Positions 1,198 through 60,389 of a stretch of 64,000 nucleotides of DNA are shown here, one piece after another (position 1 is the stretch's first letter; each line of letters opens with the position of its first letter). The DNA lies in the IMG/VR virus record IMGVR_UViG_2795385563_000001; one strand, given 5' to 3'. The stretch comes from a virus. A program made the translations under genes and the position numbers. The notes under the pieces were generated by a model. That model searched no databases. It saw only the letters and a list, made by a program, of their open reading frames with translations, and was not told the DNA's origin.

Positions 1198-1329
1198 GGC
1201 AGAAGTGTGTCAAGAGGTGATGCACAGACCACCCAAGCTGTGCAAGACACACCGTGGTTGCACGCCCCATGACGCCCGTTCTCGGCGTGTCCTACCTTTC
1301 AGGCGCCAATCCAAGGAACAACTTGGACG

Positions 1330-1602
1330 ATGGGCAGCATGAGCGACACCGATGCCATGGCGGAAGCACTTGCTGCATTCTTGCGCGCCGCTACCGCCGG
1401 CCCAGCCACGTCGCCGCCACCGCAGCAACAGCAGCAGAAGACCGTGTACCGCGTCGATGAAGCAGCTGAGCTGCTGTGCATCAGTCGAGCCCACTTGTAT
1501 GCGCTGATTCGTTCCGGCGAAGTCAACTCCGTGAAACTCGGGCGATCTCGACGAATCACCGGAGCCGAGGTTGAACGGCTAATGAGAGGCAGCGCCGCAT
1601 AG
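1330..1602 (+). CDS. xis: Excisionase / MerR-type HTH DNA-binding protein
   Basis: 90 aa. VYRVDEAAELLCISRAHLYALIRSGEVNSVKLGRSRRI matches the excisionase-family HTH_17 consensus. It is divergent from int across about 130 bp. Confidence 0.7.
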   Translation: MGSMSDTDAMAEALAAFLRAATAGPATSPPPQQQQQKTVYRVDEAAELLCISRAHLYALIRSGEVNSVKLGRSRRITGAEVERLMRGSAA

Positions 1603-1750
1603 CACCATCAGCTCTGCCTACTTCACGAACAACGCAAACCATGCGCACCGCGGGGACAACCACCCGATGACCGCTGCTTGAGATGTCGGCAGGTCGGCGT
1701 GTCGCCCAGGCCAGGACGCTCCCGGCCTGAATCCCTCGAATACTGCTGCC

Positions 1751-4155: not shown

Positions 4156-4860
4156 TCAGTACTTGTCACGTCCCCGTCGCTGCATCGACGTCCAATAGCT
4201 CGCCGGAATCATCTTGGCCGAGGCCACAGCGCGCAGTAGCGCGGTTCGGTGTTTCGCCGGATCGAAGTCGGATTCAGTGATCACAACATCGTTGGGTCCC
4301 AGCGCGTTGGTTCCGGCGATGCGCACGCGGATTACGCGCAGCCCGCGTCGGGCATAGAAACGGTTGCGCATGATGTCCTCGGCCACCTTCTCCGGCGCTC
4401 CATGCCAGTGCGCCGGGTCGACCTCTACGACCGCGAAAGGCTTGCGCAGCAGTATGTCCGGCGTGAAGAAGCGATTCTTGCCCGCACTATCACGGCCCAT
4501 GCACATGAGCGTTCCTTGCGGATAGGTGCGGTACCCGGCGTTCTCAAGCACCTTACGCACGCGCATCTCGGTCTTGGACGTGGCCGCGGACCCACCCAGG
4601 GACAGGTCACCTGGGCGCGCATTGACGCGATCCATCTTCGGCAGCACGGGCGGCGTCTTTCGCTGATGCCACCAGGCCATCGTCCACACCACCAGCAGTG
4701 CCATCGGCACGATCGGGTGCAATAGGAAATCGGCCATGACCGGAAGATAGGGAGAAGCGGCCGCCGCGCTGTTCCAGGGCGCGCAAACAGTTACCGTTAC
4801 GACAGGCGCGCGAATGCCGCCATCAACCGGCTGTGGCGGCCAACCTGCTGCGGTGTCCAC
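4156..4860 (-). CDS. DUF559-type (Vsr/restriction-endonuclease-fold) protein with N-terminal transmembrane helix
   Basis: The C-terminal region (FFTPDILLRKPFAVVEVDPAHWHG...DIMRNRFYARRGLRVIRV) matches the DUF559 pattern vvEvDG..wH ... D..R...L...Gw.VlRf. A hydrophobic helix (LLHPIVPMALLVVWTMAWW) lies near the N-terminus. Confidence 0.55.
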   Translation of the reverse strand: MDTAAGWPPQPVDGGIRAPVVTVTVCAPWNSAAAASPYLPVMADFLLHPIVPMALLVVWTMAWWHQRKTPPVLPKMDRVNARPGDLSLGGSAATSKTEMRVRKVLENAGYRTYPQGTLMCMGRDSAGKNRFFTPDILLRKPFAVVEVDPAHWHGAPEKVAEDIMRNRFYARRGLRVIRVRIAGTNALGPNDVVITESDFDPAKHRTALLRAVASAKMIPASYWTSMQRRGRDKY

Positions 4861-8075: not shown

Positions 8076-9215
8076 TCACGCATTTGGTCGGATTCTCTTC
8101 GCTCGCGTGATCGCCCGTCGCGAAGACGCTAGCTCAGGCGCTGGTAGACGTAGCGGTGACATCTGTTCCTGAACGGTTGCTGCTAGCGCAAGCGGGCGCA
8201 GTGCTTCCATTGCCTCATCAGCCTGGTGCATATGCTGTTCGAAATCCGACCAGGCCAGATCTGCACGGAGCCTTGGAACTACTGCCAACGCTCCGTCTCC
8301 ACCTTCTTCCGCAGTCCGCGCCGCGAGCGATGCGGCATATCCTTGTCGCATCGACAGGGCCGCACACCGCAAGTGGAAACGCACCTGCTCAGCTTCAGGA
8401 CTCGGTTCGTCCTGCAACCAAAAGATCGATCGGAATTCGAACACCTGCTCACGAAGCTCGATATATTCGGCTGTGCGTGTGAGTATTTCGTTCCACTGGT
8501 CAGTACCTTCGCATTCGAGTGGTTCCGCAAGTTCCCAGGCTGTATGTGCAAGCGAGGGCCATGCGTCCCGAACTTCATTCGGGATCGACATGATCCGGAA
8601 CACGCAGGCACCTAAAGTGACTGCCAGGAAGAGCAGGAGCAGACCGGCTATTCCAGCCTCAACATCGTTGTGAGCATCTACAGCCACCACGTCCACCACC
8701 AACATAGCGGCTAGCGATATCCACATCAGCCGCCAGGCACGGGGCCGTGCTCTCGATATTCCACCCGCCGTCTTGACGGAATGGTGTGGACGAACCTGCA
8801 CCTCAGGTTGTGCCCACAACCGCAGGAGGGTCCTCGCGCGATCTTCGTCCGGAACCAGCCCCAGAACTTGCGGATGCAACTGGTCCCGCACGGCTCGCTC
8901 AGTTGTGGACTCAAAACTCCGAGCCCTTTGCATCAATCGCACCGTCGCTGGATCCATTACTATTGCCTTTCCGGAGTCTGCTCGATTCGGTGAAGGATCG
9001 GCCACCTGAAGTAGACGACAAGTCAGCGACACGAAAACTGGGCGACGAGAATGACTGTCACGTCCCCATTGCGCTAGCCCACCCCAACCTGTTTGAGCTC
9101 TCCGACCAGCGGACGCCACCCGCTGGGTGGCAGCTCGCTGATCGGCAACCGTCGCAGCACCAGAACTATTTGCATACCTCGCCCCAACACGGAACCGCGC
9201 CGGACTGTGCGTCAT
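8076..9215 (-). CDS. Hypothetical membrane protein (two central TM helices)
   Basis: LAAMLVVDVVAVDAH...GIAGLLLLFLAVTLGACVF. The true start is probably the internal MDPATV near 8957. The N-terminal 85 aa of the call look non-coding. Confidence 0.4.
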   Translation of the reverse strand: MTHSPARFRVGARYANSSGAATVADQRAATQRVASAGRRAQTGWGGLAQWGRDSHSRRPVFVSLTCRLLQVADPSPNRADSGKAIVMDPATVRLMQRARSFESTTERAVRDQLHPQVLGLVPDEDRARTLLRLWAQPEVQVRPHHSVKTAGGISRARPRAWRLMWISLAAMLVVDVVAVDAHNDVEAGIAGLLLLFLAVTLGACVFRIMSIPNEVRDAWPSLAHTAWELAEPLECEGTDQWNEILTRTAEYIELREQVFEFRSIFWLQDEPSPEAEQVRFHLRCAALSMRQGYAASLAARTAEEGGDGALAVVPRLRADLAWSDFEQHMHQADEAMEALRPLALAATVQEQMSPLRLPAPELASSRRAITRAKRIRPNA

Positions 9216-20495: not shown

Positions 20496-20694
20496 GGCCG
20501 CTCCTTGTCTGCAGTTCGCCTCGTTCCAACGCGCGAAGAATACACAGATACGTACTGTGCATCACCTGCATACATAGTCGGCAACAATGCGGCAAGTCGC
20601 CACTCGCGCCGCGCTCAACGCTGCTGCCGAACATCCCCTAGCCTCCGCCGGAACATCGCGTCAGCCCGACCGAGAACCTTCAGGAGACCGACAC

Positions 20695-21513
20695 ATGTCC
20701 GCAGGTAAGCGCTCAATCCTGTCCGCCATCGCCACAGCCGCAGCCTTCATAGCCGTGGGTAGCGGCACCGCGTACGCAGATCCTGAATCCGACCAACCCA
20801 CAGACATCTCGGTGGTCGATCATGGTGCATCCGACTATGCAGAGCAACCGGCAACAGATTCGGTGTTCGAGCGGCACATGGTCGATGAGGAGTTCGCGCC
20901 CGGGCCCGTGGAAGCACCCGACGGGGAACCCACACCGGTGGAGGGAGATCCGCTGGTCGAAGAACCCGCACCAGAAGAAGACCCGGTCATCGTGGACGAC
21001 CCGATACCTGGTGCCGCGCCGTCACGTCCCCTGGTACTGGTACCCGAGGCCTCGACCAGGCCAGTCATCTCGGCTGCCGCCATCGACAAGTCCAACATCG
21101 TTTACACAGCGCACCCGGTGCCTCATGTCACCGATGCGGACATCTTCGCGGGGCTGCAGGCCGCCGGCGTAAATCCCGGGCTGTTCAGGCGATTCGACGC
21201 CGCGACACGCACCATCATGGGCGGCGAATCCGGCGGAGCGACCAACGCGGTCAACCGCAGGGACTCCAATGCGTGGGGCGCCCGACAGAGCGACGGCGCT
21301 CCTGCGGGAAGCTCGCGCGGCCTGATGCAGACGGTCCCAGGCACTTTCGCGGCAAATCACGCACCGGGTACTTCGACGTTCATCTATGACCCGGTCGCCA
21401 ACATCGCTGCGGCATGGCGCTATATCGCCGTGCGTTACCACGTCGACTTGCACACGGGTGCTGGACTGGTCACCTTCATGGCGCGCGGTGTCGGGCACGG
21501 AGTCGGGTATTGA
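20695..21513 (+). CDS. Secreted lytic transglycosylase (SLT domain) protein
   Basis: Signal peptide MSAGKRSILSAIATAAAFIAVGSGTAYA. Acidic Pro-rich linker. The C-terminal SLT core is GGESGG...SSRGLMQ. The start was moved to ATG 20695 after AGGAG. Confidence 0.6.
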   Translation: MSAGKRSILSAIATAAAFIAVGSGTAYADPESDQPTDISVVDHGASDYAEQPATDSVFERHMVDEEFAPGPVEAPDGEPTPVEGDPLVEEPAPEEDPVIVDDPIPGAAPSRPLVLVPEASTRPVISAAAIDKSNIVYTAHPVPHVTDADIFAGLQAAGVNPGLFRRFDAATRTIMGGESGGATNAVNRRDSNAWGARQSDGAPAGSSRGLMQTVPGTFAANHAPGTSTFIYDPVANIAAAWRYIAVRYHVDLHTGAGLVTFMARGVGHGVGY

Positions 21514-26797: not shown

Positions 26798-27116
26798 GGC
26801 TCCCTTGCTTGCTGAACGATCGGATGGGGTCGATACGAAAGGACGAAGCGCCTCCAGCGCGCATATAGGGATAGGTCAGCGGATGGACTGCGTACGTGGC
26901 TCCTACCGCGTTGAGGTCGGCCCATCTTGTCGCCTCTTCTGCCGAATCAAACGGACCAACGAACCGCGGAAGGAATGGTTTTCCCCACGTGATATCGAGG
27001 ACGTATTTCTCATCGCCTGCCACTGTCGCTCCTGTGCTGATTGGGCGTTCGCACCCCAAACGGGTCAAGTTCAGCTCGACTGACGTCGAATCATCTTCAT
27101 TTACACGGTCATCCAC
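26781..27116 (-). CDS. Hypothetical protein
   Basis: 111 aa, just downstream of polA. Confidence 0.35.
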   Translation of the reverse strand: MDDRVNEDDSTSVELNLTRLGCERPISTGATVAGDEKYVLDITWGKPFLPRFVGPFDSAEEATRWADLNAVGATYAVHPLTYPYMRAGGASSFRIDPIRSFSKQGSHDARI

Positions 27117-29896
27117 CGCTGCCCCATTTCGTTGACGTCGACGGCCAAGAAGGCCTCGATACCGTGGTACTGCGCCACAGCCTGCAGGAATGGGGGTGGT
27201 GTGGCCATCACTTCCGTGAGCTCGGCGGCTATCTCCTTGTCAGCCACGATCTCGTCATGCATCCATAGGTGCACATGGTCGGACAGTCCGCGGCGGTCCA
27301 ACTCGAGGATCGCGTAGTGCATTATGTCCAGCGCCGAACCTTGGCAGAAGTGGTTGGGCGCAATGCGTTGTGCCACATCGCTGATCAGGCGACCGCCCTC
27401 GTAGAAGCTGAATTTCTGGTCTACCACCCGACCGGTGAGTGTGGTGACGCAACCGAACGCCTGCGACTGCGCTTTGAGCGCATCGATCAGCTTGTACAGG
27501 ATCGGCAGCCCATCACGGATCGCCCACAGCACACTCTTGGCTCGCGCTTCATCCCATCCGTAACGCAGTGCCGCCGCCCTGTACCCCTGGCCATACATGT
27601 TGGCCAACATGATTCGCTTCGCGTCTTTACGGTTGGTACCGGCACGCTCGCCCACAGGCTCGTACGGGTCCTTGCCCGCGCGCATGTCCTCAATGAATTG
27701 GCGGTCCCCCGATGCTGTCGCCAAGACCACTGGTTCTATCGATTTCCAGTCAGCCGAAATCCACTCTCCTGCATCGCCGTCTGCGACGATCACGCCGCGG
27801 GCCCTCTCCGGAAACTGTTGAATCTCCGGCTTGCTCGCACTGTTGCCCGTCAGGTACGGGCCATGTTCGCCCCATGCGGTGAATGTGCCCGAATCAGTTG
27901 TCACACACCACACATCGCCTACCCCGACATCACTCACAACCATGTTGGCCAGGCTGGAGCGCCCTCGATGTAGCACGACGGCGGCCCCTGCAGGTGCGTC
28001 GAAGATCAGGGATCGCAGCCCGAGACGATATCCCGCCAGCGCGAAAGCCTCGGCGTAGCGCTTGTTGGGCGTGGGCAGCACGGTGAGACCAGCGTGACTG
28101 GCGTTTGTCGCGTAGTGGCTCGCACCCTCCAGCATGTTCCAAAGCTCATCGAGAGACTTGTCGCACACCGAGTGCAGCGCGGTGTCTCGTGGCGCATGTT
28201 CGGGTACCCAGCAGGTTTCACCTTCGGTCTGCCAGCGCTCACGCAGGCTAGTCACCCTCGCGCGCCGTGTCTCGGCTGGACCGCACAGAGCATCGGACAA
28301 CTCGCCGGTGCGTTGTCGCGCAAGCTGAACAGTGACACGCCCGATGGTGTACGCGGCGTGCTGCGGAGCGGTCATGGAGTTCCCGCCTCCGCACACCCCG
28401 GGAGTAATAGGCGGCGTGAGACGTAAGTGGTCGGACTGCCGCGCACGGTCAAGAGGCTGAACCTTGCGCTTACCGGCCGTGTTCTCGGTAACCCAACGGT
28501 GCTCGGGTGTGCAAATCAGTTCGATTCCATCATCGAGTGCGTATCGGCGAAGCGGCGCATCGCTGTATCGGTGCACCGCCCGCACCGTCGTCCAGCGCCC
28601 GTCCGCATCCAGGGTTCGATCGCCGATCCGGATCTCGTTCACAGACACGATGCCCCGGCGGGTCAGCAGCCGCTGATTCTCGGGCAGGCACATGCGGCCG
28701 GTGGCGCTGGCACCCAAGATCTTGATTTCTGGATGTAGGCGCCCTGTGGGGCCTGCATTTTCGACCACCTTCTCGACGTAACCGCGGTCTTTCTCGTTGT
28801 CGAAAACAGCACGGTGCGCCATCACCAGCGGGTTCTTCAGCGCGTCACTGATGTGCTCGCCGGTGAAGACCTCCAAGGCCTTCTTATCGGCTTTCAGGCG
28901 GCCTGTGTCGGTACGCGGCCATTGCTGGTGCAGCAGACCGCGGGCATCGAGGGTGTTGATCAGGTCAGAGGCATTGCCCGGCCGGATCCCCGCCTCGGCG
29001 AGAGTCGTTGCGGCGGCCCGCGTCTGCTCAGCAGTCTGTTCCAGGAAACGCTGGGGGAACTCTTTGTCGACCGCATATCCACGTGCCGTCCGCTCCAGCA
29101 CTATGGCGTTGACGCGCTGGATGTCCTCGACGAGTGCTTCAGCGTCAGTGGCTGTGAGAACACCATGGCCGCCGAAACCTGCTGACGGGGCCGTCAGGTA
29201 GCGCGCAGCCTTGGCCATGATGCCGTGTCCGTTAACGCCGGGGACGCCCCATAGGCGCTTTGTCGCGACGGTGTCGGACAACGCACCCACGACATAGGTC
29301 GGAGTGTCGATGTCCGTTCCCCGCCAACCGTCGTCCTTCTTCAGTCCTCGCGCGGAGAAAACTTCGGTCATCGACGTGCGATCGTCATCCATCACCTGGA
29401 ACGCGTTGGCGAGGTCTTCGAGTGTGCGGCCGGCCTTGGCGTTGGTCCCCACCATCCGCGCAGCGACCAGCGTGTCACCGAGCTTGCGGATGTGAGCTCG
29501 CGTCATGAGCCGGTGCGCGTACAGCGGCGCGATATCGAAGCTGGCACCATGAAAAATCAGCCGGTCGGCATGATCGAAGATTTGCGCGAGCATTCCCCGA
29601 TGCTCCGGACGCCGGAGCGGATCAAGCAGCAGCGCGACCATGTCCTGCCCCAGCTGGAAAGCCACGGTGACGCAAGTGATCGTGAACTTGTTGACGTCCA
29701 GACCATGCGTCTCGATGTCCACCGCGACCGCGGCTGGCGGCGTTGATCGCAGCTCGTCGATCCAGCGGGCAATCTGTGCATCGGCGGTAACTAGGTGCGC
29801 CCCCACTGTGTGGTCATAGAACTGGAACTCGACGGCGTTAACACGCGGAAGATCGACAACTGGGACGCTGGGCTCTGCGGACACACGGGCAGTCAA
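27101..29896 (-). CDS. polA: Family-A DNA polymerase (Pol I-like) with N-terminal 3'-5' exonuclease domain, interrupted by an intein
   Basis: Exo motif VDIETHGLD. Pol motif A ISADWKSIEPVVLA. Motif B RKDAKRIMLANMYGQG. Motif C WMHDEIV. A Hint-domain insertion lies between ATGRM and SASKPEIQQFP, where the uninterrupted motif is TGRLSSxDPNLQNIP. TTG start. Confidence 0.8.
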   Translation of the reverse strand: MTARVSAEPSVPVVDLPRVNAVEFQFYDHTVGAHLVTADAQIARWIDELRSTPPAAVAVDIETHGLDVNKFTITCVTVAFQLGQDMVALLLDPLRRPEHRGMLAQIFDHADRLIFHGASFDIAPLYAHRLMTRAHIRKLGDTLVAARMVGTNAKAGRTLEDLANAFQVMDDDRTSMTEVFSARGLKKDDGWRGTDIDTPTYVVGALSDTVATKRLWGVPGVNGHGIMAKAARYLTAPSAGFGGHGVLTATDAEALVEDIQRVNAIVLERTARGYAVDKEFPQRFLEQTAEQTRAAATTLAEAGIRPGNASDLINTLDARGLLHQQWPRTDTGRLKADKKALEVFTGEHISDALKNPLVMAHRAVFDNEKDRGYVEKVVENAGPTGRLHPEIKILGASATGRMCLPENQRLLTRRGIVSVNEIRIGDRTLDADGRWTTVRAVHRYSDAPLRRYALDDGIELICTPEHRWVTENTAGKRKVQPLDRARQSDHLRLTPPITPGVCGGGNSMTAPQHAAYTIGRVTVQLARQRTGELSDALCGPAETRRARVTSLRERWQTEGETCWVPEHAPRDTALHSVCDKSLDELWNMLEGASHYATNASHAGLTVLPTPNKRYAEAFALAGYRLGLRSLIFDAPAGAAVVLHRGRSSLANMVVSDVGVGDVWCVTTDSGTFTAWGEHGPYLTGNSASKPEIQQFPERARGVIVADGDAGEWISADWKSIEPVVLATASGDRQFIEDMRAGKDPYEPVGERAGTNRKDAKRIMLANMYGQGYRAAALRYGWDEARAKSVLWAIRDGLPILYKLIDALKAQSQAFGCVTTLTGRVVDQKFSFYEGGRLISDVAQRIAPNHFCQGSALDIMHYAILELDRRGLSDHVHLWMHDEIVADKEIAAELTEVMATPPPFLQAVAQYHGIEAFLAVDVNEMGQRWMTV
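27842..28690 (-). mobile_element. Intein (about 283 aa) within polA, with degenerate endonuclease-like middle region
   Basis: Starts CLPENQRLLTRRGIVSVNEIRIGDRTLDADGRW (intein block A). Ends ...GEHGPYLTGN followed by Ser. Coordinates are approximate by a few nt. Confidence 0.65.
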
Positions 29897-30142
29897 ACAC
29901 CCGCTGCCGACAGTCTTTCTTGCATGTTGCCGACACGCCGATCGATGGCATCAAATCCGGCATCCGACTCGCACACTTGCAGGATCACCCAGTTTCAATT
30001 TCCTCGCCAACTCATTTTCGGCCGGCCGCTTCACCGCCCTTCTGCGCATTTTCGTTGGTGCTTTGTGCGCGCTGATTCATGGTGCGATCGTTTCGGTGCA
30101 CACGGTATCTCGCCGCTCTGACCTGCATAAATGGTCAACACG

Positions 30143-30434
30143 GCGTGCACTTCTCGGGTTACCTGCGGTTTTACGTTGGGGCCTCGTAAGTGGGGGGTGC
30201 CTCGGAGGGGCTCCGGATATACAAAATTGCCCACAGAGTGCATATTTCAATAAACCCCAGGTAGATATATGTAATTAGTTTAGCTAACAATTTGTTTTAC
30301 CCGTTACACGAGGCTATAGCCGATCTGTTCAAGTCCAGCGGCGTTGGTATATGTGCACGCGGTGGGGGTCTCCGAGGCACCCCCCACTTACGAGGCCCCA
30401 ACGCAAACCTGCAGGTAACCGCAGAAGTGCACGC
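30143..30434. repeat. Large imperfect inverted repeat (two arms of about 65 bp, about 88% identical) flanking a 162-bp spacer with an AT-rich core
   Basis: Left arm 30143-30207: GCGTGCACTTCTCGGGTTACCTGCGGTTTTACGTTGGGGCCTCGTAAGTGGGGGGTGCCTCGGAG. Right arm 30370-30434 is its reverse complement with a few mismatches. The core at 30225-30300 is about 35% GC and contains the TTAGCTAA palindrome. Confidence 0.8.
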
Positions 30435-30933
30435 AAAGTTGACAGAAACAGCAGGTCAGAGCGGCCAGATGTGGGGCGAGGCGAAACGATCGCACCAGAG
30501 AACGTGAAAGCGCAACGGCGTGTCATCGATTGATCACAGCGGAGGCGGCCGCCGTAGCTGGCAGCCGCCTCGGGCCCGTTGAATGGGCATTTGGAGCGCC
30601 CAAGCAGTAAATACCGCCTCCACCTGGCCATTGGGGACGTGACATGCAACATGTGGCACCTGTTGCCGGTTCCCAGACGGGTAGCGGCGACAGGTGCGTC
30701 ATCGCATTACCCCAGCTAGAGGGTCAATTCCTCACGACTTGTCGGACCTCAGGCGTACAACGACACACGCAAAACAAGCAATGTGTTGCACGTGCATCAC
30801 AACCGGCATTACGCTCACCAAGACGACGGCAGTTGCCGGTGTTGGAAACGTGGATGATTCGTAAATTCGACTCCCCGTTTCCGGTGCCGAACGACCTCGC
30901 CACTCGGACCGACCACTTCGAGGAGACCCGCCC

Positions 30934-31380
30934 ATGACCGCTGCACCACCTCTAGTTCCCTCCACAGCGCCTTTGCACGGTGTTGCTCCCACAAGCCCGA
31001 TCGCGCCGCAGACAACCCCGGGGAACGCCACATCCACGCTGTCGACTCCGGAGATCGTGGCGTTCATCGAGGCTTCGGCCGACCCAGCGGCCGAACTCGC
31101 ACACCTGGTTCTTCAGGTGTCGATGCGAGCGGCCAGTGCCGCGCGCCAGGGCCAGATCCTCAGCTCGGTGAAGAGCAAGTGCGAAAGGACTCTCAAAGCG
31201 GTCCGCACCACGCTGCTAACCGCTGTGACGAACTCTCCCGGCGTCTACGACGGCTTCACCGTCACCTCGAAGTCGGGGGCCCGCTCACTCAATTACGACC
31301 ACCTCCACGAGCGCTACCCCGATGTGTACGCCGAGCTGGTGACGGTTGGCGCCGCGTCGTTGTCCGTCAGTTACACCTAG
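30934..31380 (+). CDS. Hypothetical protein
   Basis: 148 aa. First gene of the plus-strand block after the intergenic region. Confidence 0.4.
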   Translation: MTAAPPLVPSTAPLHGVAPTSPIAPQTTPGNATSTLSTPEIVAFIEASADPAAELAHLVLQVSMRAASAARQGQILSSVKSKCERTLKAVRTTLLTAVTNSPGVYDGFTVTSKSGARSLNYDHLHERYPDVYAELVTVGAASLSVSYT

Positions 31381-48564: not shown

Positions 48565-49020
48565 TCAGCCGAACAGAACCAGCGTCACGACCACCGGCGA
48601 AGCCTCCGCAACCTCCCGAATGATCTGCTCGGCCACTGCGGGATCCAGACCGCCGATACCGCCGCCGATAAGTGGTAGCGCGACAGAACCGATCCCCTGC
48701 TTATGCGCCAGGTCTAGCCCCTGAGTCAGAGATGCGCGCAGCCACTGCTCGGTCGCATCGGGACCCGGCTGATTCTGACTCGCACAGTGGATGATGGGGC
48801 GACCCAGCCCGGCGTCACGGCCTTTGTTACGGGTGAACACAGCCGAGCCGGGCGTGATCCGCCCCTGCTGCGCAAGGATGACGTACTGAGTCATCGCGTC
48901 GGGATAGCGGTCCGCCATCACCGAGGCCAGGCCCCCGGTGACGCCCTGGCAATTCACTCCGTGCGCCAATGCCTCAGCTGGATGGGCGAACAAGTCGCCG
49001 GTCTCGACGGTGAAGCTCAT
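48565..49020 (-). CDS. Macro domain protein (ADP-ribose binding/processing)
   Basis: VETGDLFAHPAEALAHGVNCQGVTGGLASVM...GSVALPLIGGGIGGLDP matches the macrodomain fold. Confidence 0.7.
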   Translation of the reverse strand: MSFTVETGDLFAHPAEALAHGVNCQGVTGGLASVMADRYPDAMTQYVILAQQGRITPGSAVFTRNKGRDAGLGRPIIHCASQNQPGPDATEQWLRASLTQGLDLAHKQGIGSVALPLIGGGIGGLDPAVAEQIIREVAEASPVVVTLVLFG

Positions 49021-50086
49021 CGATGCCTCCTCAGACTCGATCCGAATGGGGGACGCGACGGATTGTCCTGTACGTCCCCCAACTGCCAGGGTTCAATGGC
49101 ACGGGCCCGGCTCAGTCTTGCGAGCTTGCCGAGCAGTAGGTCCGACATCTTGTCGCCCTGAACTTCGGCGTCACAGTCACCTTGGGCATCTACGGGAACG
49201 GGATACCTTCTGTCGATGTGGAAGCCCACCATTGGGGTTGGATACTGATCCGACGGCAACTTGCGCAGCATTTTTCCGTACGGTCGGCCAGCAGGTATGT
49301 GAGCGGCGTCGTCAGTCCCTATCAGCGCGCGTGAGTGCTCAGGTCTGTTGACCCTCAGTGAGAACCTGAATCCCAGCAGAGCATCCAGCCCTTCAAGCAT
49401 CGGCTCGGAGAAGTGTTCACCGGCCAGAAGCAGGTGCACTCCGGCCGAGGCCCCGTCTCGTGCGATGTCCATGAGCCGGTTTCGCTTCTCTGGATTCTCC
49501 TGTAGGACCCAGCAGAAATTGTCGATGACCGCTACCAGATCTGGTAGCGGCGGACAATTACCGTCAACAGCGCGTGCACAGCGTTCGCGCCGGTATTCGG
49601 CACTGCTCCGGCAGTGTTTGGACGCGAGAAAGTCCTCTCGACGCCGGATCTCAGCTGTGAGAACAGCCAACGTCCAGTCAATGGTCTCTTCGGGTTTGTC
49701 ATGACCTGACACGTTTGCGACCGTGTGGGGCAACGCCTCGAATCCTCGGAACGTCGCGGTCCCCATCCCGTCAGCCAAGAACAGCGAAAGCCGATCCGGC
49801 CCATACCTGGTCGCGAGCGACAAGACCATCGACCGCAGGAAGTAACTTCTTCCCGCCCCGGTCCGCCCCTGCACGGCGCCGCTGGTTCCGTCACGCGAAA
49901 AGTCCAGGGTGCTCAGCTCTGGGATCAGCGCGTCGCCGACACGCAGATAACCTGTTGGTATCGCGACTGAGTCAGCGTGAGCGTTCCGCGCCCATGCCGC
50001 CGCGGGGTTGTAGGTTTCGATGTCGTCGATACCGAGCACGTCGAAGAAGTCCGGAATCTTGCCGTCACTGTCTGCACCGATGGCGC

Positions 50087-50090
<4 letters not shown>
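49017..50090 (-). CDS. Stand-alone FtsK/SpoIIIE ATPase domain, close paralogue of EccC ATPase domain 1, with Walker A Lys replaced by Arg
   Basis: DFFDVLGIDDIETYN...GAVQGRTGAGRSYFLRSMVLSLATRYGPDRLSLFLADGMGTATF versus EccC DFFEVLEIGDIETHD...GAVAGRTGSGKSYFLRAVVLALIAMYGPDKVALILADFKGGATF. Walker B VAVIDNF. Confidence 0.7.
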
Positions 50091-50905
<815 letters not shown>

Positions 50906-51524
50906 GTCCCGTCGTCCTTTCCATTGGTTGAAACGGCGCCTGGTGGTTCACGCGCTGTGTCCGCGCTAGATGAAGCGAGCCGCAATCTAGGACTGACCGA
51001 CCGACGAGCCAGACCGCGGCGCGTACCCGGAAATGCCCGAGAGCACACCCGCGATCACGCATCGCTCAAATCGCCCCTATCAATCGCCCCCGCCGACCGG
51101 TTCAGCAGCCGCTCCGATCCAGTACGGAGCCTGGCTGCGGAGTTGTCTCCAACGCGCGTGCGCACGCGCAAGACCGCCGCTTCCCCGAATTCGCTCAATG
51201 TCACGCTCAGAGGTGCGCTCATTGGGTCGATCAGCACCTCGCTCAGAAGCCCCGCCAAAACCCCACTCAACTCCGCAGTCAATATTGCGATACGCACTAA
51301 AGCTCCACGGCTGGAAAGTGTTTCGCGCTTCCACTTGGTCGCGGCCCAAGTATTCGCGCCGCCGTGACCCCGCTCAGCCGCGCGCTCAACTCGACGTTAC
51401 GGAACCTCTAGCTGCAGCCCGGCGCACGAGGACCACGGATCGGGGGACGTGACATCCATCGCGCCACGGCGGGTGTCGTGTCGCGTGCGATCCGATTACG
51501 GGTTGCGCCGCACACTGCGCCCCC

Positions 51525-53181: not shown

Positions 53182-56100
53182 CTATGCAGACTGCCGAAGC
53201 GCCTGCCGCTCTTGCTGCAATTTCCTGTCCACCGCGTCGACATCGATCCGCGCGGTCTGCACCATTGCATAGTCGTCCGCATCTACGATGATTCGGCCCT
53301 GTCCAGGACGCCAGCGCATCGGCTTGAGGTGGTAAGCCTGGCCGATTGGATCGCCGGATGACGGTGGGCTAGCCAGCTGCAGGATGGGAGCCATCATGTT
53401 CTCCCGCAGCGCCATCAGGAACTCGGCCGACTTCACCTTGCTGGCGAACCCGCTGTTGTCCGAGACGATGAAGTGCACGCCGAGGTCTGTTCCGGAAGCG
53501 AGCAATTCACTAATCGTCACCCCGCCATACCGCACCTCGTCGAACACCGACTTCGACGAGTAGCCCTTGGCCAGGTTGGAGAAGTTGTCGACGAACACGT
53601 AAACCTCGGGTCCAGTGAAGAAGGTCCGGGACTTGAGCTCATCGGCAGTGGCGTCGTCGGTGGGGCGACGAGATCCCATTAGCTTGACCAACATCTCCGC
53701 CGTTTCGGCGATATCTTCGGCACTGGTGACATATCCCGGTGGACGCATCCGCTCCCGCACCATCGCACCGTCGCGCTCCACCTCTTGGAACTTGGCGGGC
53801 CTGACGAATCCGCGGGCATACAGGCGATCTCGCTCCCCCAGGTGCTGGCGAAGCGGGTCGATCACGATGATGATGGCGTCCTTCGGGGTGAACTGACGCA
53901 TCACCGACTCCATGAAGCTGCGCATCAGATTGCTCTTGCCGGCGCCCTTCTCGCTGTACACAAGCAGGTTTTGTGAGAAGTTCGGCATCGGCGCCAGGTC
54001 CAAAGTGTCCATGCGGACACCCAGCGGGATGATCGTGTGCATGGGATGCCGGTGAGGATCGCTCAGTGGCGCGAACGTCGACCACATGTGCTCGTAGTCG
54101 ATGACCGGATCGGCGGGCAGAACCTTGGGAACTCTCTGATCGGCTAGCTCGGCGTCAAGATAGGTGCACAGTTCTCGGATCTCTTCGCCGTAATCGTGAA
54201 TCTTGAAGTCCTTCATACCTCCCACGTACCCGTCCTCTTCGATCTCTCGGAAGATGGGCACCGCGGTGCGCGCCTGCAACATCGTGAACGGATCGAATGA
54301 ACGGCCAGGCTGATCCACCGGGATACGCTCGCTCAAGGTGAAGCGCACCTCGGACGAGACTTTCGCCCCACCGTAGTCCGTAGAAGGGAGCTGTACACCG
54401 CCGTTGACCTCCGCGGTGTAGTGAGTCACGTTGCCCGCGTTTCCTGATCCGCCTGAGTCAGCGGTGTAGACCAGGTGCACGCCCACCGCGGCGCCCTTGT
54501 CGAGGATTGGGCGCAACAGTTGCGCACGGTCGGCGCGCTCGTCCTTCTCGCCCAGGAATCCTCCGATGCCGTCAATAGCCACGATCACGTACCCGTAGGG
54601 GTCGCCTTCGACGGGGACAGCGGACTCACCAGACTTGGACGCCAGGTACGCGTCCACCGACGAAGCTTGGCGATCCACCATTTCGCGACGACGTAGGTCG
54701 ATCAGGCGGGAGGCCTCACCGAGAATGCGCGCTGTGGTCTCGTCGTCCTCCGGTCGCGCATAGGCCGCAACGTTCGGGCTGTCCTTGACTTCTCCGAGCT
54801 TGCCGGTGCCGTAGTCGACCAGCATGAACGCAAGCCGCGCCGGTCCGTGCTGGAGGCATCCGCAGATGACCAGCGTCTGTAGCAGGGTCGTGCGCCCCGA
54901 CTTGCCAGCGCCCGCGATCACCTGGTGTGGCAGGTTTCCGCCGAAATCCACGAACCAGGGCAACCGCGTGTGCTTTTCGGGTGCATCGAGGTCACCGACC
55001 CTGATCCTGATCCCGCGCTCTTCACGAGTCAGGTCCAACGTGGGCAATGACAGCGGCTCACGTAGCGATGGTTTCCACAGATCCAGGGTGCGCATTTTTG
55101 ACAGACGCGAGGCCTTTTCCAAGAGAACATCGGCCATCTTCTCGCCGAGCTCCTCCTCGGTGACCTCAACGTTATCTTCCTTTACCTCGGGTTTGAATTC
55201 CCCGGTGGCGAAGAACGTGAACGGAACTACCGTCTCCGCGACTGGTCCGGATCCGTCCGCATGCACACGAGATCGCTCGGTCACCGTGCGCCTGACGTAC
55301 GGCGCCTCGTGATGGAACGCCGCTACTTCAACAGGCTTGGCGTCAGTGGTGAACTTGCGCAAGATCTTTCCCTTGAGCCCGCCCTTCTTGCCCACCATCG
55401 TCGCCGCGTCGTCTGTGCCCAGCATCGCGACGGAATAGCTCGTGCTGTTGACCGCCAACGAGTAGCGGAAGGTCAAGTGCTCGAACAGATCACCGATGAC
55501 ATCCTTGTTGATGAACTGGCTGCACATGACCAGGTGCATACCCAGCGAGCGGCCCACGCGCCCGACGCGGATCAGCATCTCCAGATAGCCCGGGCGGCCT
55601 TTGAGGAATTCGCCGAACTCGTCGATGATCACGATCAGGTCAGGAAGCGGAGGCCAGTTCGGATCGTTCGGGTGCTTCTTCTGCTGCTCCCGGTAGTCGA
55701 AGATGTCCTTGCAGCCCTTTTCGGTGGTGATGAACTCCTCCCGGCGGTCCACCTCTCCGTTGATGACCGCGCCTAGGCGATCGACGAGTTCCATCGTGTT
55801 CTCGAGGTTGGAGATAGACGCCACGACGTGCGGCAGCTTGTCCATCCCCAGGAACGTCGCGCCGCCCTTGAAGTCAGCAAGAATGAGCGCGACCTTGTCC
55901 GGTCCATACATCGCGATGAGCGCCAGGACTACCGCGCGCAGGAAGTAGGACTTACCGGAACCGGTTCGGCCCGCCACCGCTCCGTGCGGACCGTTTCCGT
56001 CTCGGTTCTCTTCGTAGAAGTTCAGGTATGTCAGCTCGGGGGTGAGCTCATCGCCCTTGCGGTAGTAGCCAAACGGCACCTTGATCTCGTCGGTGTAGGC

Positions 56101-57465
56101 GTTGCGCTTCCACACCTCGATCAGGTCGTGCGTCTCGATGTCGCCGATCTCGAGCACTTCGAAGAAGTCCGGGATGTGGTCGGGACGATCGTCGACCACT
56201 TCGCCGCCGACGCCGTAGTTGCGCGGCCGCCATTTGTACATGGTCTGGGCGAAGACTGCGGCCTCGGCGATCGTCGCTGAGTCGGCAGCCGCAGCGTCGT
56301 AATTATCGACAGTCGAGACGCGGCCGTCCTTGAGAAGGATGCGACTCTTCATCTCGACGGGGTCGGTAACCAGATCTTGGCCGCAGCGCACCACGAACCA
56401 GGTCATGCCCTTGACACCGCCCGCGATGTTCGCCGGCCAGGACACCATCGCATCGGGGGTATCGATGATCAGAATAAGATGCGGGGGCCGGTTGTCGCTG
56501 TCCTCGTTGCGCATGCGCTCGATCTGCGCGGCGTGCTTGACCGCGAATTCATCGATGCTGCGCCATGTCAGAAGCCGTGCGCCCAGCCCCTTTTCAACAC
56601 GGGTCACGTCCTCGGCATGTGGCAGCCACTTCACCCATTCCCAAGTCTCGGGGTCATCGGTCACCACGCCGACGTTCAGATCGCTGGGCCGGTGGTTGAA
56701 CGCCAGCGACATCAGCATGGCCCGTACGAGCCCCAGGCGCCCCTGCTCATCTCCGCGCATCGCGTAGGCGGGAAACTCGTCGAGGCGTACGTCGAGCGGT
56801 AGGTTGGCGACTACCGACAGCGTGTCCATCGCGCGCCCGTAACGCACCATAGTCGCCGGTTCCTGCATCTCCGGCACCACATCTGGCGCCTGTATGAGTT
56901 TCGGAAACAGCGGCGCCACACCGATTCCGACACGAGCCCGCAGATATGGGTTCGAGGTCAGATTTTTGACGTCGGGGTCCGACTCCTGGTCCGCCTGAAC
57001 TACGCGACCGATTTCGGGGTTGGAATCGGCCTGCCACATTTCGTGAGAGCCGATCAGGGAAAGAAGATCAGCCGGGTGCGGGAAGCATTGGGTTCGCAGG
57101 TCATGCATGGCCTGCCCCTGCTCGTAGATTTCAAAACGCTGCTCACGCAGTTCCAGGTCGTATTCCTCTATGTCCTGGTCGATGTCGCCACCGCTGTTGC
57201 CCTGGCTGCGCATCTGCGCGATGTACATCAGCGGCATCATCAGCATGATCGGCATCGTGGTGAGCATCGTTGTGATGGCGCGTTGTCCGGTGACCAGCGA
57301 CATGACAACCATGCCGACCATGAGGCCCACCATCATCAATGGCATGAAGCGGAGCCAGATCGGGCGCTTGTCCGGCGCCGGCAGGCCTAGCGGCTCTTTG
57401 AGTTGTACACCGGTGGGCGACAACTGAACTGATTCGCGCGGGGGAACCCGGAAAACAGTGAACAT
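53182..57465 (-). CDS. eccC: EccC-like type VII secretion FtsK/SpoIIIE ATPase (TM segments, DUF domain, three P-loop domains)
   Basis: 1427 aa. N-terminal RFMPLMMVGLMVGMVVMSL...MLMMPLMYIAQM...HPADLLSLIGSHEMW...VKWLPHAEDV is collinear with M. tuberculosis EccCa1. P-loops GRTGSGKSY, GAGKSGRTT and GAGKSNLM. ATG preceded by AAGGAAGGA. Confidence 0.85.
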   Translation of the reverse strand: MFTVFRVPPRESVQLSPTGVQLKEPLGLPAPDKRPIWLRFMPLMMVGLMVGMVVMSLVTGQRAITTMLTTMPIMLMMPLMYIAQMRSQGNSGGDIDQDIEEYDLELREQRFEIYEQGQAMHDLRTQCFPHPADLLSLIGSHEMWQADSNPEIGRVVQADQESDPDVKNLTSNPYLRARVGIGVAPLFPKLIQAPDVVPEMQEPATMVRYGRAMDTLSVVANLPLDVRLDEFPAYAMRGDEQGRLGLVRAMLMSLAFNHRPSDLNVGVVTDDPETWEWVKWLPHAEDVTRVEKGLGARLLTWRSIDEFAVKHAAQIERMRNEDSDNRPPHLILIIDTPDAMVSWPANIAGGVKGMTWFVVRCGQDLVTDPVEMKSRILLKDGRVSTVDNYDAAAADSATIAEAAVFAQTMYKWRPRNYGVGGEVVDDRPDHIPDFFEVLEIGDIETHDLIEVWKRNAYTDEIKVPFGYYRKGDELTPELTYLNFYEENRDGNGPHGAVAGRTGSGKSYFLRAVVLALIAMYGPDKVALILADFKGGATFLGMDKLPHVVASISNLENTMELVDRLGAVINGEVDRREEFITTEKGCKDIFDYREQQKKHPNDPNWPPLPDLIVIIDEFGEFLKGRPGYLEMLIRVGRVGRSLGMHLVMCSQFINKDVIGDLFEHLTFRYSLAVNSTSYSVAMLGTDDAATMVGKKGGLKGKILRKFTTDAKPVEVAAFHHEAPYVRRTVTERSRVHADGSGPVAETVVPFTFFATGEFKPEVKEDNVEVTEEELGEKMADVLLEKASRLSKMRTLDLWKPSLREPLSLPTLDLTREERGIRIRVGDLDAPEKHTRLPWFVDFGGNLPHQVIAGAGKSGRTTLLQTLVICGCLQHGPARLAFMLVDYGTGKLGEVKDSPNVAAYARPEDDETTARILGEASRLIDLRRREMVDRQASSVDAYLASKSGESAVPVEGDPYGYVIVAIDGIGGFLGEKDERADRAQLLRPILDKGAAVGVHLVYTADSGGSGNAGNVTHYTAEVNGGVQLPSTDYGGAKVSSEVRFTLSERIPVDQPGRSFDPFTMLQARTAVPIFREIEEDGYVGGMKDFKIHDYGEEIRELCTYLDAELADQRVPKVLPADPVIDYEHMWSTFAPLSDPHRHPMHTIIPLGVRMDTLDLAPMPNFSQNLLVYSEKGAGKSNLMRSFMESVMRQFTPKDAIIIVIDPLRQHLGERDRLYARGFVRPAKFQEVERDGAMVRERMRPPGYVTSAEDIAETAEMLVKLMGSRRPTDDATADELKSRTFFTGPEVYVFVDNFSNLAKGYSSKSVFDEVRYGGVTISELLASGTDLGVHFIVSDNSGFASKVKSAEFLMALRENMMAPILQLASPPSSGDPIGQAYHLKPMRWRPGQGRIIVDADDYAMVQTARIDVDAVDRKLQQERQALRQSA

Positions 57466-57485
57466 TGCAGTTCCTTCCTTGGTAG

Positions 57486-59366
57486 TCAGCGACCGACGGT
57501 CGAGGCGTCGTTGGTGGCCTGCGCCCGATCTGCGGTGTCCGAGCTTGAGCTAGCCGCAGGGTCCGGGGTAGTGGCATCAGGCGCAGGCGCCTCTCCCTCT
57601 TCCTCGGGGACCGGCGCGGGCGGAGGTTGTCCTTGCGTCGTTGGCGGGTTCGGTACCTGCGATGCGGGGTTGATGGTTCCCTGCATGACTTGTGCGTTCT
57701 TGATCGACAACGTCGCTCCAGGTGCGTACAACTTGGCGACCGCCGCGGGGATGGGTGTCGGCGAAATCGAGTCGAAACCAAGGGCTTTGACAGTTGGGTC
57801 GTAGGACACCGCGCCGTTGCGGGCAATCACCACGTCAATCGGAAACCGGGTTCCATTGGGATCGATCCACAGCAGTTGCTCGGCGGCCACCGAATCTGTG
57901 CTGTCACCGGTCGTTCGGGCATACCATCCGTACCCGGGGCGGGTGATCGAATCAGTTGCCTGGTCGGTAGACCCGTTGTTGGGCAGTAGATGTACGGCGG
58001 CAACGCGTCCGGACTCAGTGACCGGCATCCGAGAATTAGTGAAGATGCGAGTGTGCGCTGTGAGCTCACCAGCGGACTTGGTCCAGCTCCAGCACAGCGC
58101 GGGCTCACTGACCAGCGTCGGCACCTGCGTGGGAAACCGTGAGTCGTCGACGATCCCCACCCGAGGCATCGCCTGCACCGAGGCAGGGTCGTCGACGAGC
58201 TTCTGCGCCGCCCCGGTGTTGATCATCATCTGCGCCAGTACGGGACTGACCTGTTGCACTCCTCCAGAACCAACCAAATAGAAGGCCCGTGAGCCCGATG
58301 CCGTAGCCACCGTGAGCACGTCGCCGATGGCGGAGCCGTTCACCGTTGGGCTGGGCTGCCCTTGGTTAACGAGCCTGGGCGCGGTGAGCACGGGCGACGG
58401 CGCAATCGTTGCGAGCAGCGAAGGTGAGACAGTCACTGCGGTCTCGATAAGCGACGGTGTCAGTCCGAGAGCGGCCTGCGCGGCATAGTCCCCACGCCCA
58501 ACTTCAGCTCGTGTGTCGCGATACAGCAGCCACAACCTGGTCGGATCGCTGGCAGGTTTGACCAGCACCGCTCGGTTGCTTCCCAGATCGGTTCCGCCAT
58601 CAAGCATGTCGTCTCCGGCAATCACAGCGGTGGTGATGTCGCCGGTCTTAAGAAGCGACAGCGGCACCGCTGTGTCGCGCCAGTCGCAGACGGTCCACAC
58701 AGCTGACTCGTCAGTGCGCGGGGACAACAGATTGGGCGCACTGGGAATACCCATCAGGGGCCCGGTGGGTAGTGAACGCAGCGCCGTGTCGGTGGCGACC
58801 TTGGCTTCTTCTGGCGTGCCGACAATCAGACGAGCCGAGGCCAGGTTGGTCACCGGGTGCAGGCGGCCGTTGAACTGAACGAATATGCCGCCGGAGCGGG
58901 TTGTCATGATCGCGGCGACGCCCGAATCGGGCTTCGGGTTGATCAACGAGACAACGAATGCCGCTACGAGAACAAGTACGCCGCCTACGAGGCTGATCGA
59001 CAAGGATCCACGCAGACGCGTAAGGGGCGATCCAACGCCACGCACATCCTGACGGGACAATGCCTCGTCGATGCGATTGAGTTCGCGCTTATACCCCTTG
59101 ATCTGGCGAGTGGTGGTCAAAAACCACGGCACTGCCCCATCGGCGCGGTTGGGCTCACGTTTGCGCCCCTCGGACTGTTGGTCGTTGCTCAAATTCCCAG
59201 ACACCGCAACTCCTTGCTCGCCAAGCCGACCGGCCGGCTGGCCGTGTTCGATGCGTGGGGAGAGTGGCAAAATCTCGCGGATACACAGCTCTGGGGCGCG
59301 AGGAGACGTCAGCGCCAACCGCGCCGATCTGCGAACGTGGTGTATTCTCCGTTTTAGAGAACTCAT
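57486..59366 (-). CDS. eccB: EccB-like type VII secretion membrane component
   Basis: FLTTTRQIKGYKRELNRIDEA ... single TM ... GRLHPVTNLASARLIVGTPEEAKVATDTALRSLPTGPLMGIPSAP...AVWTVCDW ... PALCWSW are collinear with EccB1. The true start is probably GTG near 59132; the called N-terminal 78 aa are doubtful. Ends 20 nt before the eccC start. Confidence 0.8.
   Translation of the reverse strand: MSSLKRRIHHVRRSARLALTSPRAPELCIREILPLSPRIEHGQPAGRLGEQGVAVSGNLSNDQQSEGRKREPNRADGAVPWFLTTTRQIKGYKRELNRIDEALSRQDVRGVGSPLTRLRGSLSISLVGGVLVLVAAFVVSLINPKPDSGVAAIMTTRSGGIFVQFNGRLHPVTNLASARLIVGTPEEAKVATDTALRSLPTGPLMGIPSAPNLLSPRTDESAVWTVCDWRDTAVPLSLLKTGDITTAVIAGDDMLDGGTDLGSNRAVLVKPASDPTRLWLLYRDTRAEVGRGDYAAQAALGLTPSLIETAVTVSPSLLATIAPSPVLTAPRLVNQGQPSPTVNGSAIGDVLTVATASGSRAFYLVGSGGVQQVSPVLAQMMINTGAAQKLVDDPASVQAMPRVGIVDDSRFPTQVPTLVSEPALCWSWTKSAGELTAHTRIFTNSRMPVTESGRVAAVHLLPNNGSTDQATDSITRPGYGWYARTTGDSTDSVAAEQLLWIDPNGTRFPIDVVIARNGAVSYDPTVKALGFDSISPTPIPAAVAKLYAPGATLSIKNAQVMQGTINPASQVPNPPTTQGQPPPAPVPEEEGEAPAPDATTPDPAASSSSDTADRAQATNDASTVGR
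59345..59361. promoter_or_regulatory. Dyad operator motif copy 5 (TTCTCCG-TTT-TAGAGAA)
   Basis: 30 bp upstream of XRE gene ATG 59392, in the divergent region toward eccB. Confidence 0.55.
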
Positions 59367-60293: not shown

Positions 60294-60361
60294 CACCCTG
60301 CACCACTGGTGAGGACTCACGAGCTCCGCCGAGTTGTCACAGCTGTCAGATGCTTCTGATA

Positions 60362-60378: not shown

Positions 60379-60389
60379 TACGAGGTGTT

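Follow-up and report, generated by a model that had tools for sequence, protein, structure and literature searches.

What does a long, imperfect palindrome do in the gap between the DNA polymerase gene and the helicase operon of a mycobacterial mobile element? The question is raised by a stretch of 64,000 nucleotides from the IMG/VR virus record IMGVR_UViG_2795385563_000001, here called the window, in which two inverted arms face each other across an AT-rich centre between polA and an operon that includes genes for a 148-aa protein and a helicase. The palindrome is real and about 420 bp long. It belongs to a conserved non-coding DNA module that is portable and of which a few mycobacterial mobile elements carry copies. 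Comparison of the copies identifies it as a polar "mirror-box element" of the integrative elements that carry ESX/type VII secretion system (T7SS) genes in Mycobacteroides and Mycolicibacterium. On its function we commit ourselves only tentatively: the reading that we favour is a protein-binding cis-element that initiates DNA processing in the manner of an origin.

The spread of type VII secretion among mycobacteria is attributed to plasmids and integrative elements with ESX/T7SS genes, which occur in the M. abscessus complex, a drug-resistant pathogen. To our knowledge, their replication origins, transfer origins and regulatory circuits are undefined. The mirror-box element offers a concrete candidate of 420-460 bp for an origin, a transfer site or a control site, with its boxes, natural variants, empty sites and duplicates mapped. 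If it were an origin or an initiation site on single-stranded DNA (ssDNA), it could aid the building of shuttle vectors and help to explain how these elements establish themselves in new hosts.

An earlier, sequence-only reading of the window had described arms of 65 bp. The inverted repeat stands, and is indeed the longest in the 64-kb window, but its arms reach about twice that length. A repeat search resolved an inner pair of 74 nt (30134-30207 and 30370-30443; 89% complementary, separated by 162 nt) and an outer pair of 47 nt (30080-30126 and 30451-30497; 81%). Taken as a whole the arms occupy 30080-30207 and 30370-30497, about 128 nt each, and align by blastn at 81% over 128 nt with one small indel, which gives a palindrome unit of about 418 bp. 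Simple arm extension yields 113 nt, compared with 20-30 nt in 20 first-order Markov simulations. Folded as ssDNA, the unit reaches -143 kcal/mol against -64 +/- 4.7 kcal/mol for shuffles (z = -16.7), and snap-back potential persists in less palindromic copies, as in that at locus L003 of Mycobacterium sp. D16Q14 (z = -7.5). The arm sequences do not occur again within the 64 kb, nor is there a second copy of the element in the window or in the 4.5 kb beyond its right end.

Between the arms lies a spacer of 162 bp (30208-30369, plus strand), which has the lowest GC content of the window whether measured over 50 bp (26%, at 30250), 75 bp (31%, at 30217) or 100 bp (34%, at 30218). The mean of the window is 62%, not the background of more than 65% that had been claimed, and the island is not the sole AT-rich one, as had been thought: two other non-coding patches toward the right end of the window (63290-63850, and 60305-60400 around 60.33 kb) reach 32-39% GC, without the boxes of the element. 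Within the spacer we recovered, as described earlier, TTAGCTAA at 30280-30287 and the imperfect dyad TTAGTTTAGCTAA at 30275-30287. The pattern of the latter, TTAGT-TTA-GCTAA, occurs twice in the window against 0.02 occurrences expected.

Does the locus encode anything? The position assigned to it, in the intergenic region flanking polA, is correct: the gene map and the comparison with relatives that lack the element delimit a gap at 29897-30933, between polA and the 148-aa operon, in which gene callers placed no gene in three independent assemblies. The short open reading frames (ORFs) that cross the element are not conserved among its copies, which supports the remark of the sequence-only reading that they are artefacts. 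That the locus is a small ORF or a structured non-coding RNA, the latter an alternative raised at the same time, is very improbable. Its strong self-complementarity is the sole point in favour; against it, Rfam returned nothing credible, either at the gathering score over the whole window or at E = 10 over 29800-31000, and RNAalifold on 14 arms predicted seven pairs, confined to the palindrome of box A (see below), with 0 compensatory changes. A search of the window for tRNAs found none. Canonical promoters fare no better and are rejected: a sigma-70 scan gave 0 sites, inspection of the alignments showed no TANNNT hexamer at a conserved position across copies, and in none of 14 arms does TANNNT or TATAAT lie 16-18 nt from the TTGACC or TTGACA of box A. 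Paired extended -10 elements of the form TGnTATAT were also considered and rejected, as they are not upheld in other copies. The element acts at the DNA level and is neither a gene nor a structured RNA.

One genome per species was scanned with the arm core CCTCGTAANNGGGGGGTGCCTC, and further copies were reached through protein homologues. The scan revealed paired inverted copies at three loci of D16Q14 and at one locus of Mycobacteroides sp. LB1 (L010). Orthologous copies at the polA locus are present in M. abscessus (L011) and D16Q14 (L003), and others lie upstream of an operon for a RuvC-like resolvase, an exonuclease and an HA-domain protein in D16Q14 (L007 = L015), M. abscessus (L017) and M. 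aubagnense (L021); these RuvC loci sit within ESX gene clusters with EccA, EccD, MycP and EccE. The third copy of D16Q14 (L008) is upstream of a gene for a multi-HTH regulator. All copies are intergenic, and six of the eight lie 74-176 bp upstream of a replication or recombination operon on their "left" side, polA in three cases and the RuvC-like resolvase with its exonuclease in the other three. Beyond the element itself, no similarity to the window is seen in the flanks of these loci. Every mobile-element lineage with sufficient sequence has at least one copy; M. aubagnense has none at polA and a diverged one at RuvC. An nhmmer profile built from the eight copies recovers all eight and detects no extra copy in any locus examined.

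DNA searches found nothing similar in INPHARED phages, PLSDB plasmids, IMG/VR or the JGI metagenomes, and no copy is present in the reference species genome of M. abscessus. In the metagenomes, a strict pattern for box B had 0 matches and a relaxed B-N57-A pattern had one chance match, on the low-GC contig L028; a literature search with the box sequences found no relevant paper. Six short-read contigs from NCBI and Logan (L002, L004, L012, L013, L014 and L016) end inside the element. Breaks in assemblies at k = 31 are explained by an exact 34-mer that the two arms of the window share, and the other breaks hint at a second, near-identical copy in those genomes. Two of the loci have features of their own. 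Directly downstream of the L008 copy (364-2193, minus strand) is a gene for a protein of 609-792 aa with five HTH_17 repeats of the excisionase/MerR type, a candidate multi-site DNA binder. Some 1.4 kb on the right-hand side of the copy in LB1 (2340-3750 of L010) have no convincing ORF and give junk-like translations; this may be decayed sequence between the element and the gene of the MspA porin.

What the copies have in common is a layout. Each member of the family is about 420-460 bp long and reads F'-A-B, asymmetric AT-rich core, B'-A'-F. In the window, the left arm carries, on the minus strand, box F' TGGTGCGATC (30080-30089), the mirror of box F and the outer end of the outer repeat pair; box A CTGACCTGCATAAATGGTCAAC (30118-30139), which is conserved in all copies; and box B GGCCTCGTAAGTGGGGGGTGCCTCGGAG (30180-30207), the best-conserved block of the family, which includes an exact 25-mer in common with the right arm. 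The right arm carries the same boxes on the plus strand: B' CTCCGAGGCACCCCCCACTTACGAGGCC (30370-30397), located by the repeat search, the exact 25-mer and the arm alignment; A' GTTGACAGAAACAGCAGGTCAG (30438-30459), located by the arm alignment; and F GATCGCACCA (30488-30497), which is the right end of the element, as the similarity between L011 and L017 stops exactly after it. The core, CAGGTAGATATATGTAATTAGTTTAGCTAA... (30258-30307, plus strand), surrounds the dyad, is conserved in all eight copies and confers polarity, while the spacer parts that separate it from box B differ among copies in both length and sequence. To the left, orthology predicts that the shared unit extends beyond the inverted repeat (30025-30079 in the window): the block common to L011 and L017 starts about 55 bp outside box F'.

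An arm of about 135 bp consists of box B (28 bp, asymmetric), 56-57 nt, box A (a 21-bp near-palindrome), about 30 nt and box F. The consensus of box F/F', read outward, is AT(T/C)GCGCCA, and this box is the least conserved; that of box A/A' is GTTGACC-N9-GGTCAAC with a semi-conserved spacer, that of box B/B' is GCCTCGTAACAGGGGGGTGCCTCTG plus variants, and the core of about 50 bp reads CAGGTAGGTATATGTATTTAGC-N3-GCTAAT..., holding a 5-3-5 dyad. Measured from GAGGCACCC to TTGAC, the interval is 56-57 nt in each of the 16 arms examined, which come from two genera (those of M. aubagnense were counted by hand), and in M. aubagnense it is kept although the intervening sequence is unrelated. From A to F the distance is 29-31 nt, and from B to B' it varies between 113 and 191 bp. 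Alignments and nhmmer agree that the mirrored boxes are conserved in the eight copies, which come from five genomes, and that the sequence between them is free. In every copy the forward orientation scores about twice as high as the reverse, so that the element is polar, and in all eight the core is oriented alike with respect to the left-specific and right-specific arm features and to the side on which polA or RuvC lies. An inverton was rejected, there being no orientation variants among these copies.

The long quasi-palindrome from which the question arose is a trait of the M. abscessus lineage; other members of the family keep only the mirrored, protein-size boxes. Between the boxes, arm-to-arm identity is 71%, 65% and 61% in the three copies of this lineage, and 36-50% in the four others. 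The matrix of arm identities suggests partial homogenisation between arms; left and right arms of the M. abscessus lineage retain arm-specific box A spacers. Selection on a full-length hairpin was rejected on the low identity in those four copies and on arm mismatches that are mostly non-wobble. Because the spacing from B to A is rigid while the sequence between these boxes diverges, we conclude that sequence-specific sites in a fixed geometry are conserved and not the hairpin; likewise, box A is conserved as a sequence and not as a hairpin, because changes in one half-site are uncompensated in the other.

The boxes also come in lineage-specific variants. Box B reads CCT(C/T)GTA(A/G)GTGGGGGG in all arms of the M. 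abscessus lineage (short form CCT(C/T)GTA(A/G)GT), CCTCGTAACAGGGGGG in all seven matching arms of D16Q14 and LB1 (short form CCTCGTAACA), and GGTAACCGGGGG or GCAACCGAGGG in M. aubagnense (short form GGTAACCG). The variant follows the lineage and not the locus, and is common to all copies in a genome. The central dyad forms a comparable series, with TAGC/GCTA, TAGT/GCTA in the window and TAGT/ACTA in M. aubagnense. Co-evolution with a trans-acting binder and concerted evolution among the copies would account for such variants equally well.

How might such an array work? In the mechanism that we propose, one or more proteins that the mobile element encodes would bind the boxes, and their specificity would co-vary with the box variants of each lineage. 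On the arms, these proteins would form two assemblies, mirror images of each other, that act on the AT-rich centre and start DNA processing. The likeliest process would be bidirectional unwinding for replication; alternatives would be the initiation of transfer, or priming on ssDNA, on which boxes B, A and F would become duplex again through pairing within the strand. We rank this origin-like role first, with well short of even confidence, because of the geometry, the melting centre, the neighbouring replication and recombination operons, the presence of a copy in each lineage and the snap-back potential. Of the traits of a theta-type replication origin (oriV), the AT-rich segment is present, here the one with the lowest GC of the window, and the mirrored B, A and F boxes at rigid spacing would be candidate initiator sites.

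Several observations weigh against an origin. The element contains no iterons or DnaA-type direct repeats, and it is not present once per replicon and conserved together with the replication module; genomes hold one to three copies, D16Q14 three, and the LB1 copy lies beside AraC and MspA genes that look host-like. In M. aubagnense (L026) and in the metagenomic locus L005 the same synteny of polA, the 148-aa gene, the gene of a protein with an E3_binding domain and the helicase gene, in L005 with a WhiA gene as well, is found with the element absent. Since the polA/helicase module exists without it in these two loci, the element is not the obligatory origin of that module. Cumulative GC skew, which had been proposed as a check, falls monotonically across 30.2 kb and does not switch, which is weak evidence for an element that is mostly passively replicated. 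No initiator, relaxase or Rep domain was detected in the neighbouring or the large unknown proteins scanned, and Pfam, PHROGs, NCBIfam and PDB sequence searches with these proteins gave nothing useful on a trans factor; domain coverage came from precomputed Pfam tables for most of the window and from our own scans, and many large proteins are unannotated. The origin architecture expected by the sequence-only reading is thus borne out in the easily melted centre, the inverted boxes and the replication-gene neighbours, but not in uniqueness, in presence among syntenic relatives or in a turn of the skew.

The relatives without the element also tell how it came to lie beside polA. In them, only 50-100 bp separate two conserved landmarks, a polA-proximal block ...CGACACGCCGA... 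and a GGGGACGTGACA box; where the element lies between these landmarks, as it does in the window, L011 and L003, the distance is 600-700 bp (about 700 in the window). Because of these empty sites in L005 and L026, the window copy is accessory: it was inserted between the operons of polA and the helicase and did not belong to the replication module ancestrally. The flanking operons have older control sequences of their own, since their upstream blocks persist where the element is absent. In M. abscessus, the copies at polA (L011) and, in another strain, at RuvC (L017) share a sharp-edged block of 460 bp at 93% identity, whereas the window and L011, whose polA-locus copies are orthologous, are only 79% alike there. 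Recent copying from locus to locus, or gene conversion, is the likely cause. The position at RuvC, shared by two genera, is probably ancestral, and the polA-locus copy would be a later duplicate of the RuvC-operon copy.

An insertion invites comparison with miniature inverted-repeat transposable elements (MITEs). The selfish version of this idea, a non-autonomous element with long inverted ends that settles in permissive, AT-poor intergenic regions and has no function for its host element, is in our view improbable. It would fit the differing presence and absence at the polA locus, the same mirror-box unit in unrelated flanks, the sharp-edged block at two M. abscessus loci and the contigs of several assemblies that break inside the element; small size, non-coding sequence and inverted arms are further MITE-like features. 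Against it, target-site duplications are missing: the sequences on either side of the unit in L011, L017 and the window show no direct repeat. The shared block starts CCGCTCGCC... and ends ...ATCACGCCA; its two ends do not form an inverted pair, and about 55 bp separate the left one from the start of the inverted repeat. Copy number is very low (one to three per genome), and neither plasmids, phages nor the reference species genome of M. abscessus yielded any copy. The three D16Q14 copies are about 72-75% alike and yet retain boxes and spacings, which implies purifying selection on function, and the position at RuvC is conserved across two genera. The recurrence of the arm as the end of an insertion sequence or MITE, which had been named as a threat to the origin idea, is therefore seen only weakly, in a few copies that lack the ends and duplications of such elements.

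If the boxes bind proteins, they could do so as operators. A regulatory hub, in which they would serve element-encoded repressors or activators and co-regulate replication, recombination and regulator operons, is possible and nearly as likely as the origin-like role; its AT-rich core could serve as a bidirectional promoter of non-canonical type, or attract silencing by Lsr2-like proteins. The copies are always intergenic and upstream of operons that read away from them (polA, RuvC/exonuclease, 148-aa/helicase and the gene with five HTH_17 repeats), box A and the central dyad resemble the classical operators of dimeric proteins, and box variants common to all copies of a lineage are what one expects of a regulator and its operators. 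A hub is harder to reconcile with the lack of a conserved -10/-35 pair, with flanking operons that retain their own conserved upstream sequences where the element is absent, and with L017 and L008, in which one flank is the 3' end of a gene running toward the element. Moreover, with its symmetry, its rigid 135-bp arms and its length of about 420 bp, the array far exceeds known operator needs, and a different motif, GGGGACGTGAC, looks like the promoter or operator signal of the whole mobile element.

The strong folding of the palindrome suggests another role, which we consider unlikely: a single-strand initiation site or ssDNA promoter of the Frpo, ssi (single-strand initiation) or sso (single-strand origin) type. 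Snap-back would make the boxes duplex and recruit RNA polymerase or a primase, so that after transfer or rolling-circle synthesis the complementary strand would be made and polA or ruvC expressed early. The sso elements of rolling-circle plasmids are accessory, as is the mirror-box element, and the long imperfect hairpin typical of such sites is seen in the folding scores of the window and L003 copies given above. Box A contains TTGACC or TTGACA, and the several intergenic copies per element, with constant polarity toward the downstream operon, recall Frpo in the leading regions of plasmids, which is likewise multi-copy, intergenic and polar (PMC11541004; for ssi, Masai and Arai 1997, as cited there). 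All of these are non-coding, imperfect palindromes of a few hundred nucleotides, dispensable and orientation-dependent, with conserved boxes within an otherwise variable stem. Unlike them, the mirror-box element has its TTGACC without a -10 or UP element, and in no arm is there a -10 at the right distance. Stem complementarity between the boxes is lost in most copies; among the Mycobacteroides copies, four of seven have non-complementary segments there, and arm mismatches are mostly non-wobble. No relaxase or rolling-circle Rep was detected in the Pfam tables, which cover most of the window, or in our scans, so that transfer as ssDNA is hypothetical.

The neighbourhood of a RuvC-like resolvase, finally, brings recombination into play. 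A site for site-specific recombination or resolution might resolve multimers, behave like attP with arm-type sites or offer the resolvase a cruciform substrate. In favour of such a role, the element has asymmetric sites inverted around an AT-rich core with a small dyad, its probably ancestral copy adjoins the RuvC-like gene, and it has cruciform potential. We nevertheless regard this role as doubtful in the extreme. The core does not appear to match the actinobacterial dif consensus; the core keeps the same orientation relative to the arms in all eight copies; no dedicated recombinase gene is adjacent at the polA locus; and the region between B and B' is not palindromic, which leaves no hairpin-telomere junction. 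The latter, or a concatemer junction, was rejected on the same ground, as the 113-191 bp between B and B' are non-palindromic save for the 13-bp dyad, which lies 1-8 bp off the axis. Comparison with a dif/Xer site, a KorB O_B operator, a MOBQ nick site and the boxes of IdeR and NrdR gave no convincing fit. For a transfer origin, the resemblance of box F, ATTGCGCC, to MOBQ-type nick regions is a lead only: conservation is lowest in this box, 30 nt separate it from the repeat, and no relaxase was found.

Returning to the origin-like role, the closest parallels come from herpes simplex virus 1 (HSV-1), whose oriL and oriS are palindromic viral origins with inverted initiator sites around an AT-rich centre; oriL lies between the genes for the DNA polymerase and the ssDNA-binding protein. 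The mirror-box element shares with them inverted, sequence-specific sites around an AT-rich spacer, a position between divergent replication genes, two to three copies per genome and a superfamily 2 (SF2) helicase encoded nearby. It differs in its much longer arms with three different boxes at rigid spacing, in a centre of 113-191 bp that is asymmetric and itself conserved, and in its host, a bacterial integrative element in which it is a candidate origin by sequence only. For operators, the nearest cases are the stoperators of Cluster A mycobacteriophages, with some 20-30 copies, and the O_B sites of IncP KorB (TTTAGCSGCTAAA), with about a dozen; both are single 13-bp sites. Like these, the element consists of short, palindromic, repeated sites in intergenic regions, with lineage variants that would track a cognate DNA-binding protein, and the TTAGC/GCTAA half-sites of its central dyad resemble those of O_B. 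Unlike them, it is a composite, polar unit of about 420 bp in one to three copies, and the spacer of its dyad is 3 nt and not 1 nt as in O_B; no ParB or KorB domain was detected in the annotated parts of the window.

From MITEs, too, it differs in that its diverged copies have boxes and spacing under selection. The description that fits the element best is that of a cis-acting site of a mobile element, palindromic and AT-centred, whose modular, rigidly spaced and portable design is unusual and absent from the literature and databases searched. We speculate, with less assurance than attaches to the origin or the hub, that it represents an undescribed class of portable, polar initiation module for T7SS-associated mycobacterial elements. 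The three-box arms would load an element-encoded machine around the AT core, or rebuild duplex sites on incoming ssDNA; replication or complementary-strand synthesis would start, the adjacent polymerase or recombination operons would be switched on, and the module would be copied between loci while co-evolving with its binder.

The element that hosts the window copy is an integrated mobile element of Mycobacteroides that resembles an integrative and conjugative element (ICE) and is not a typical prophage; the helicase protein of the window is identical to one in the M. abscessus assembly GCA_900130485.1. It carries a tyrosine integrase gene (1-1197) with an HTH_17 excisionase-like gene alongside, an FtsK/AAA (EccA-like) fusion (15710-17767), an SLT/lysin gene and that of another FtsK-like protein (20587-21513 and 49017-50090), and EccB together with an EccC-like protein with repeated FtsK/SpoIIIE ATPase domains (53182-59366). 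In all, the window encodes three FtsK/SpoIIIE-like proteins, one of them EccC-like, and a methyltransferase. Its replication block comprises a prim-pol-like gene, a family A polymerase of 931 aa, an AAA protein, the SF2 helicase and two WhiA paralogues. No capsid or portal match was found among the window proteins scanned. Matches to terminase families are weak, fall on P-loop ATPase regions and are outscored by FtsK/SpoIIIE families in the same proteins; the AAA protein has a match to DnaC-like loaders alongside a weak terminase-family match. The polymerase is at most 39% identical to those of actinophages. A prophage was rejected on the ICE-like gene content (integrase, EccB, EccC, FtsK-like, SLT) and on the absence of DNA matches in INPHARED and IMG/VR, and a plasmid homologue on the absence of a match in PLSDB.

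T7SS-bearing plasmids and ICEs have been described in Mycobacteriaceae, among them pRAW (PMC4173767) and ICEMyc226 and pCBMA213_1 (PMC7478629). The window element resembles them in its ESX genes, its FtsK-like and SLT genes of conjugation type and its integrase, and pCBMA213_1 in having a DNA polymerase I; its DNA has no blastn match in PLSDB plasmids. A comparable cis-element is not described in either paper (PMC4173767, PMC7478629), where origins and transfer origins (oriT) are undefined.

The polymerase gene (27101-29896, minus strand) encodes an exonuclease match at residues 35-166 and a polymerase match at 686-900, with about 500 residues between them that have no Pfam match. The alignments with close relatives, which have about 640 aa, cover only 43-63% of the 931 residues, and some distant homologues have LAGLIDADG or intein domains.

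To the right of the element, the copy of GGGGACGTGAC noted by the sequence-only reading was found at 30633-30643. This motif has six exact copies in the window (4165-4175, 9057-9067, 17785-17795 and 21021-21031 on the minus strand; 30633-30643 and 51443-51453 on the plus strand); if one mismatch is allowed the count is 11, where 2.5 would be expected. L003, L011 and L026 keep the copy at 30633 upstream of their 148-aa operon, and L005 has it in the form GGGGACATGACA; the motif is probably a promoter or operator of the mobile element itself. Further on, at about 30750-30870, the 148-aa gene is preceded by a conserved non-coding leader, AACGACACGC ... GCATTACGCTCACC ... GCCGGTG-TGGAAACGTGGATGATTCG, which is kept in L003, L005, L011 and L026, palindrome-less relatives included. 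It contains GACAC, the WhiA motif of Streptomyces, and the last gene of the 148-aa operon is WhiA. Two GC-rich hairpins in the same region, one at 30542-30571 (GAGGCGGCCGCC/GGCAGCCGCCTC) and one at 30651-30702 with 24-nt arms and a 4-nt loop just past the GGGGACGTGACA box, may be a terminator or attenuator. At the far side, some 3.7-4.5 kb past the right end of the window, locus L018 (15699-16573) has an HNH endonuclease gene and then at least two tRNA-like 3' ends at the end of the contig, which may be a tRNA array or the attachment site of the mobile element.

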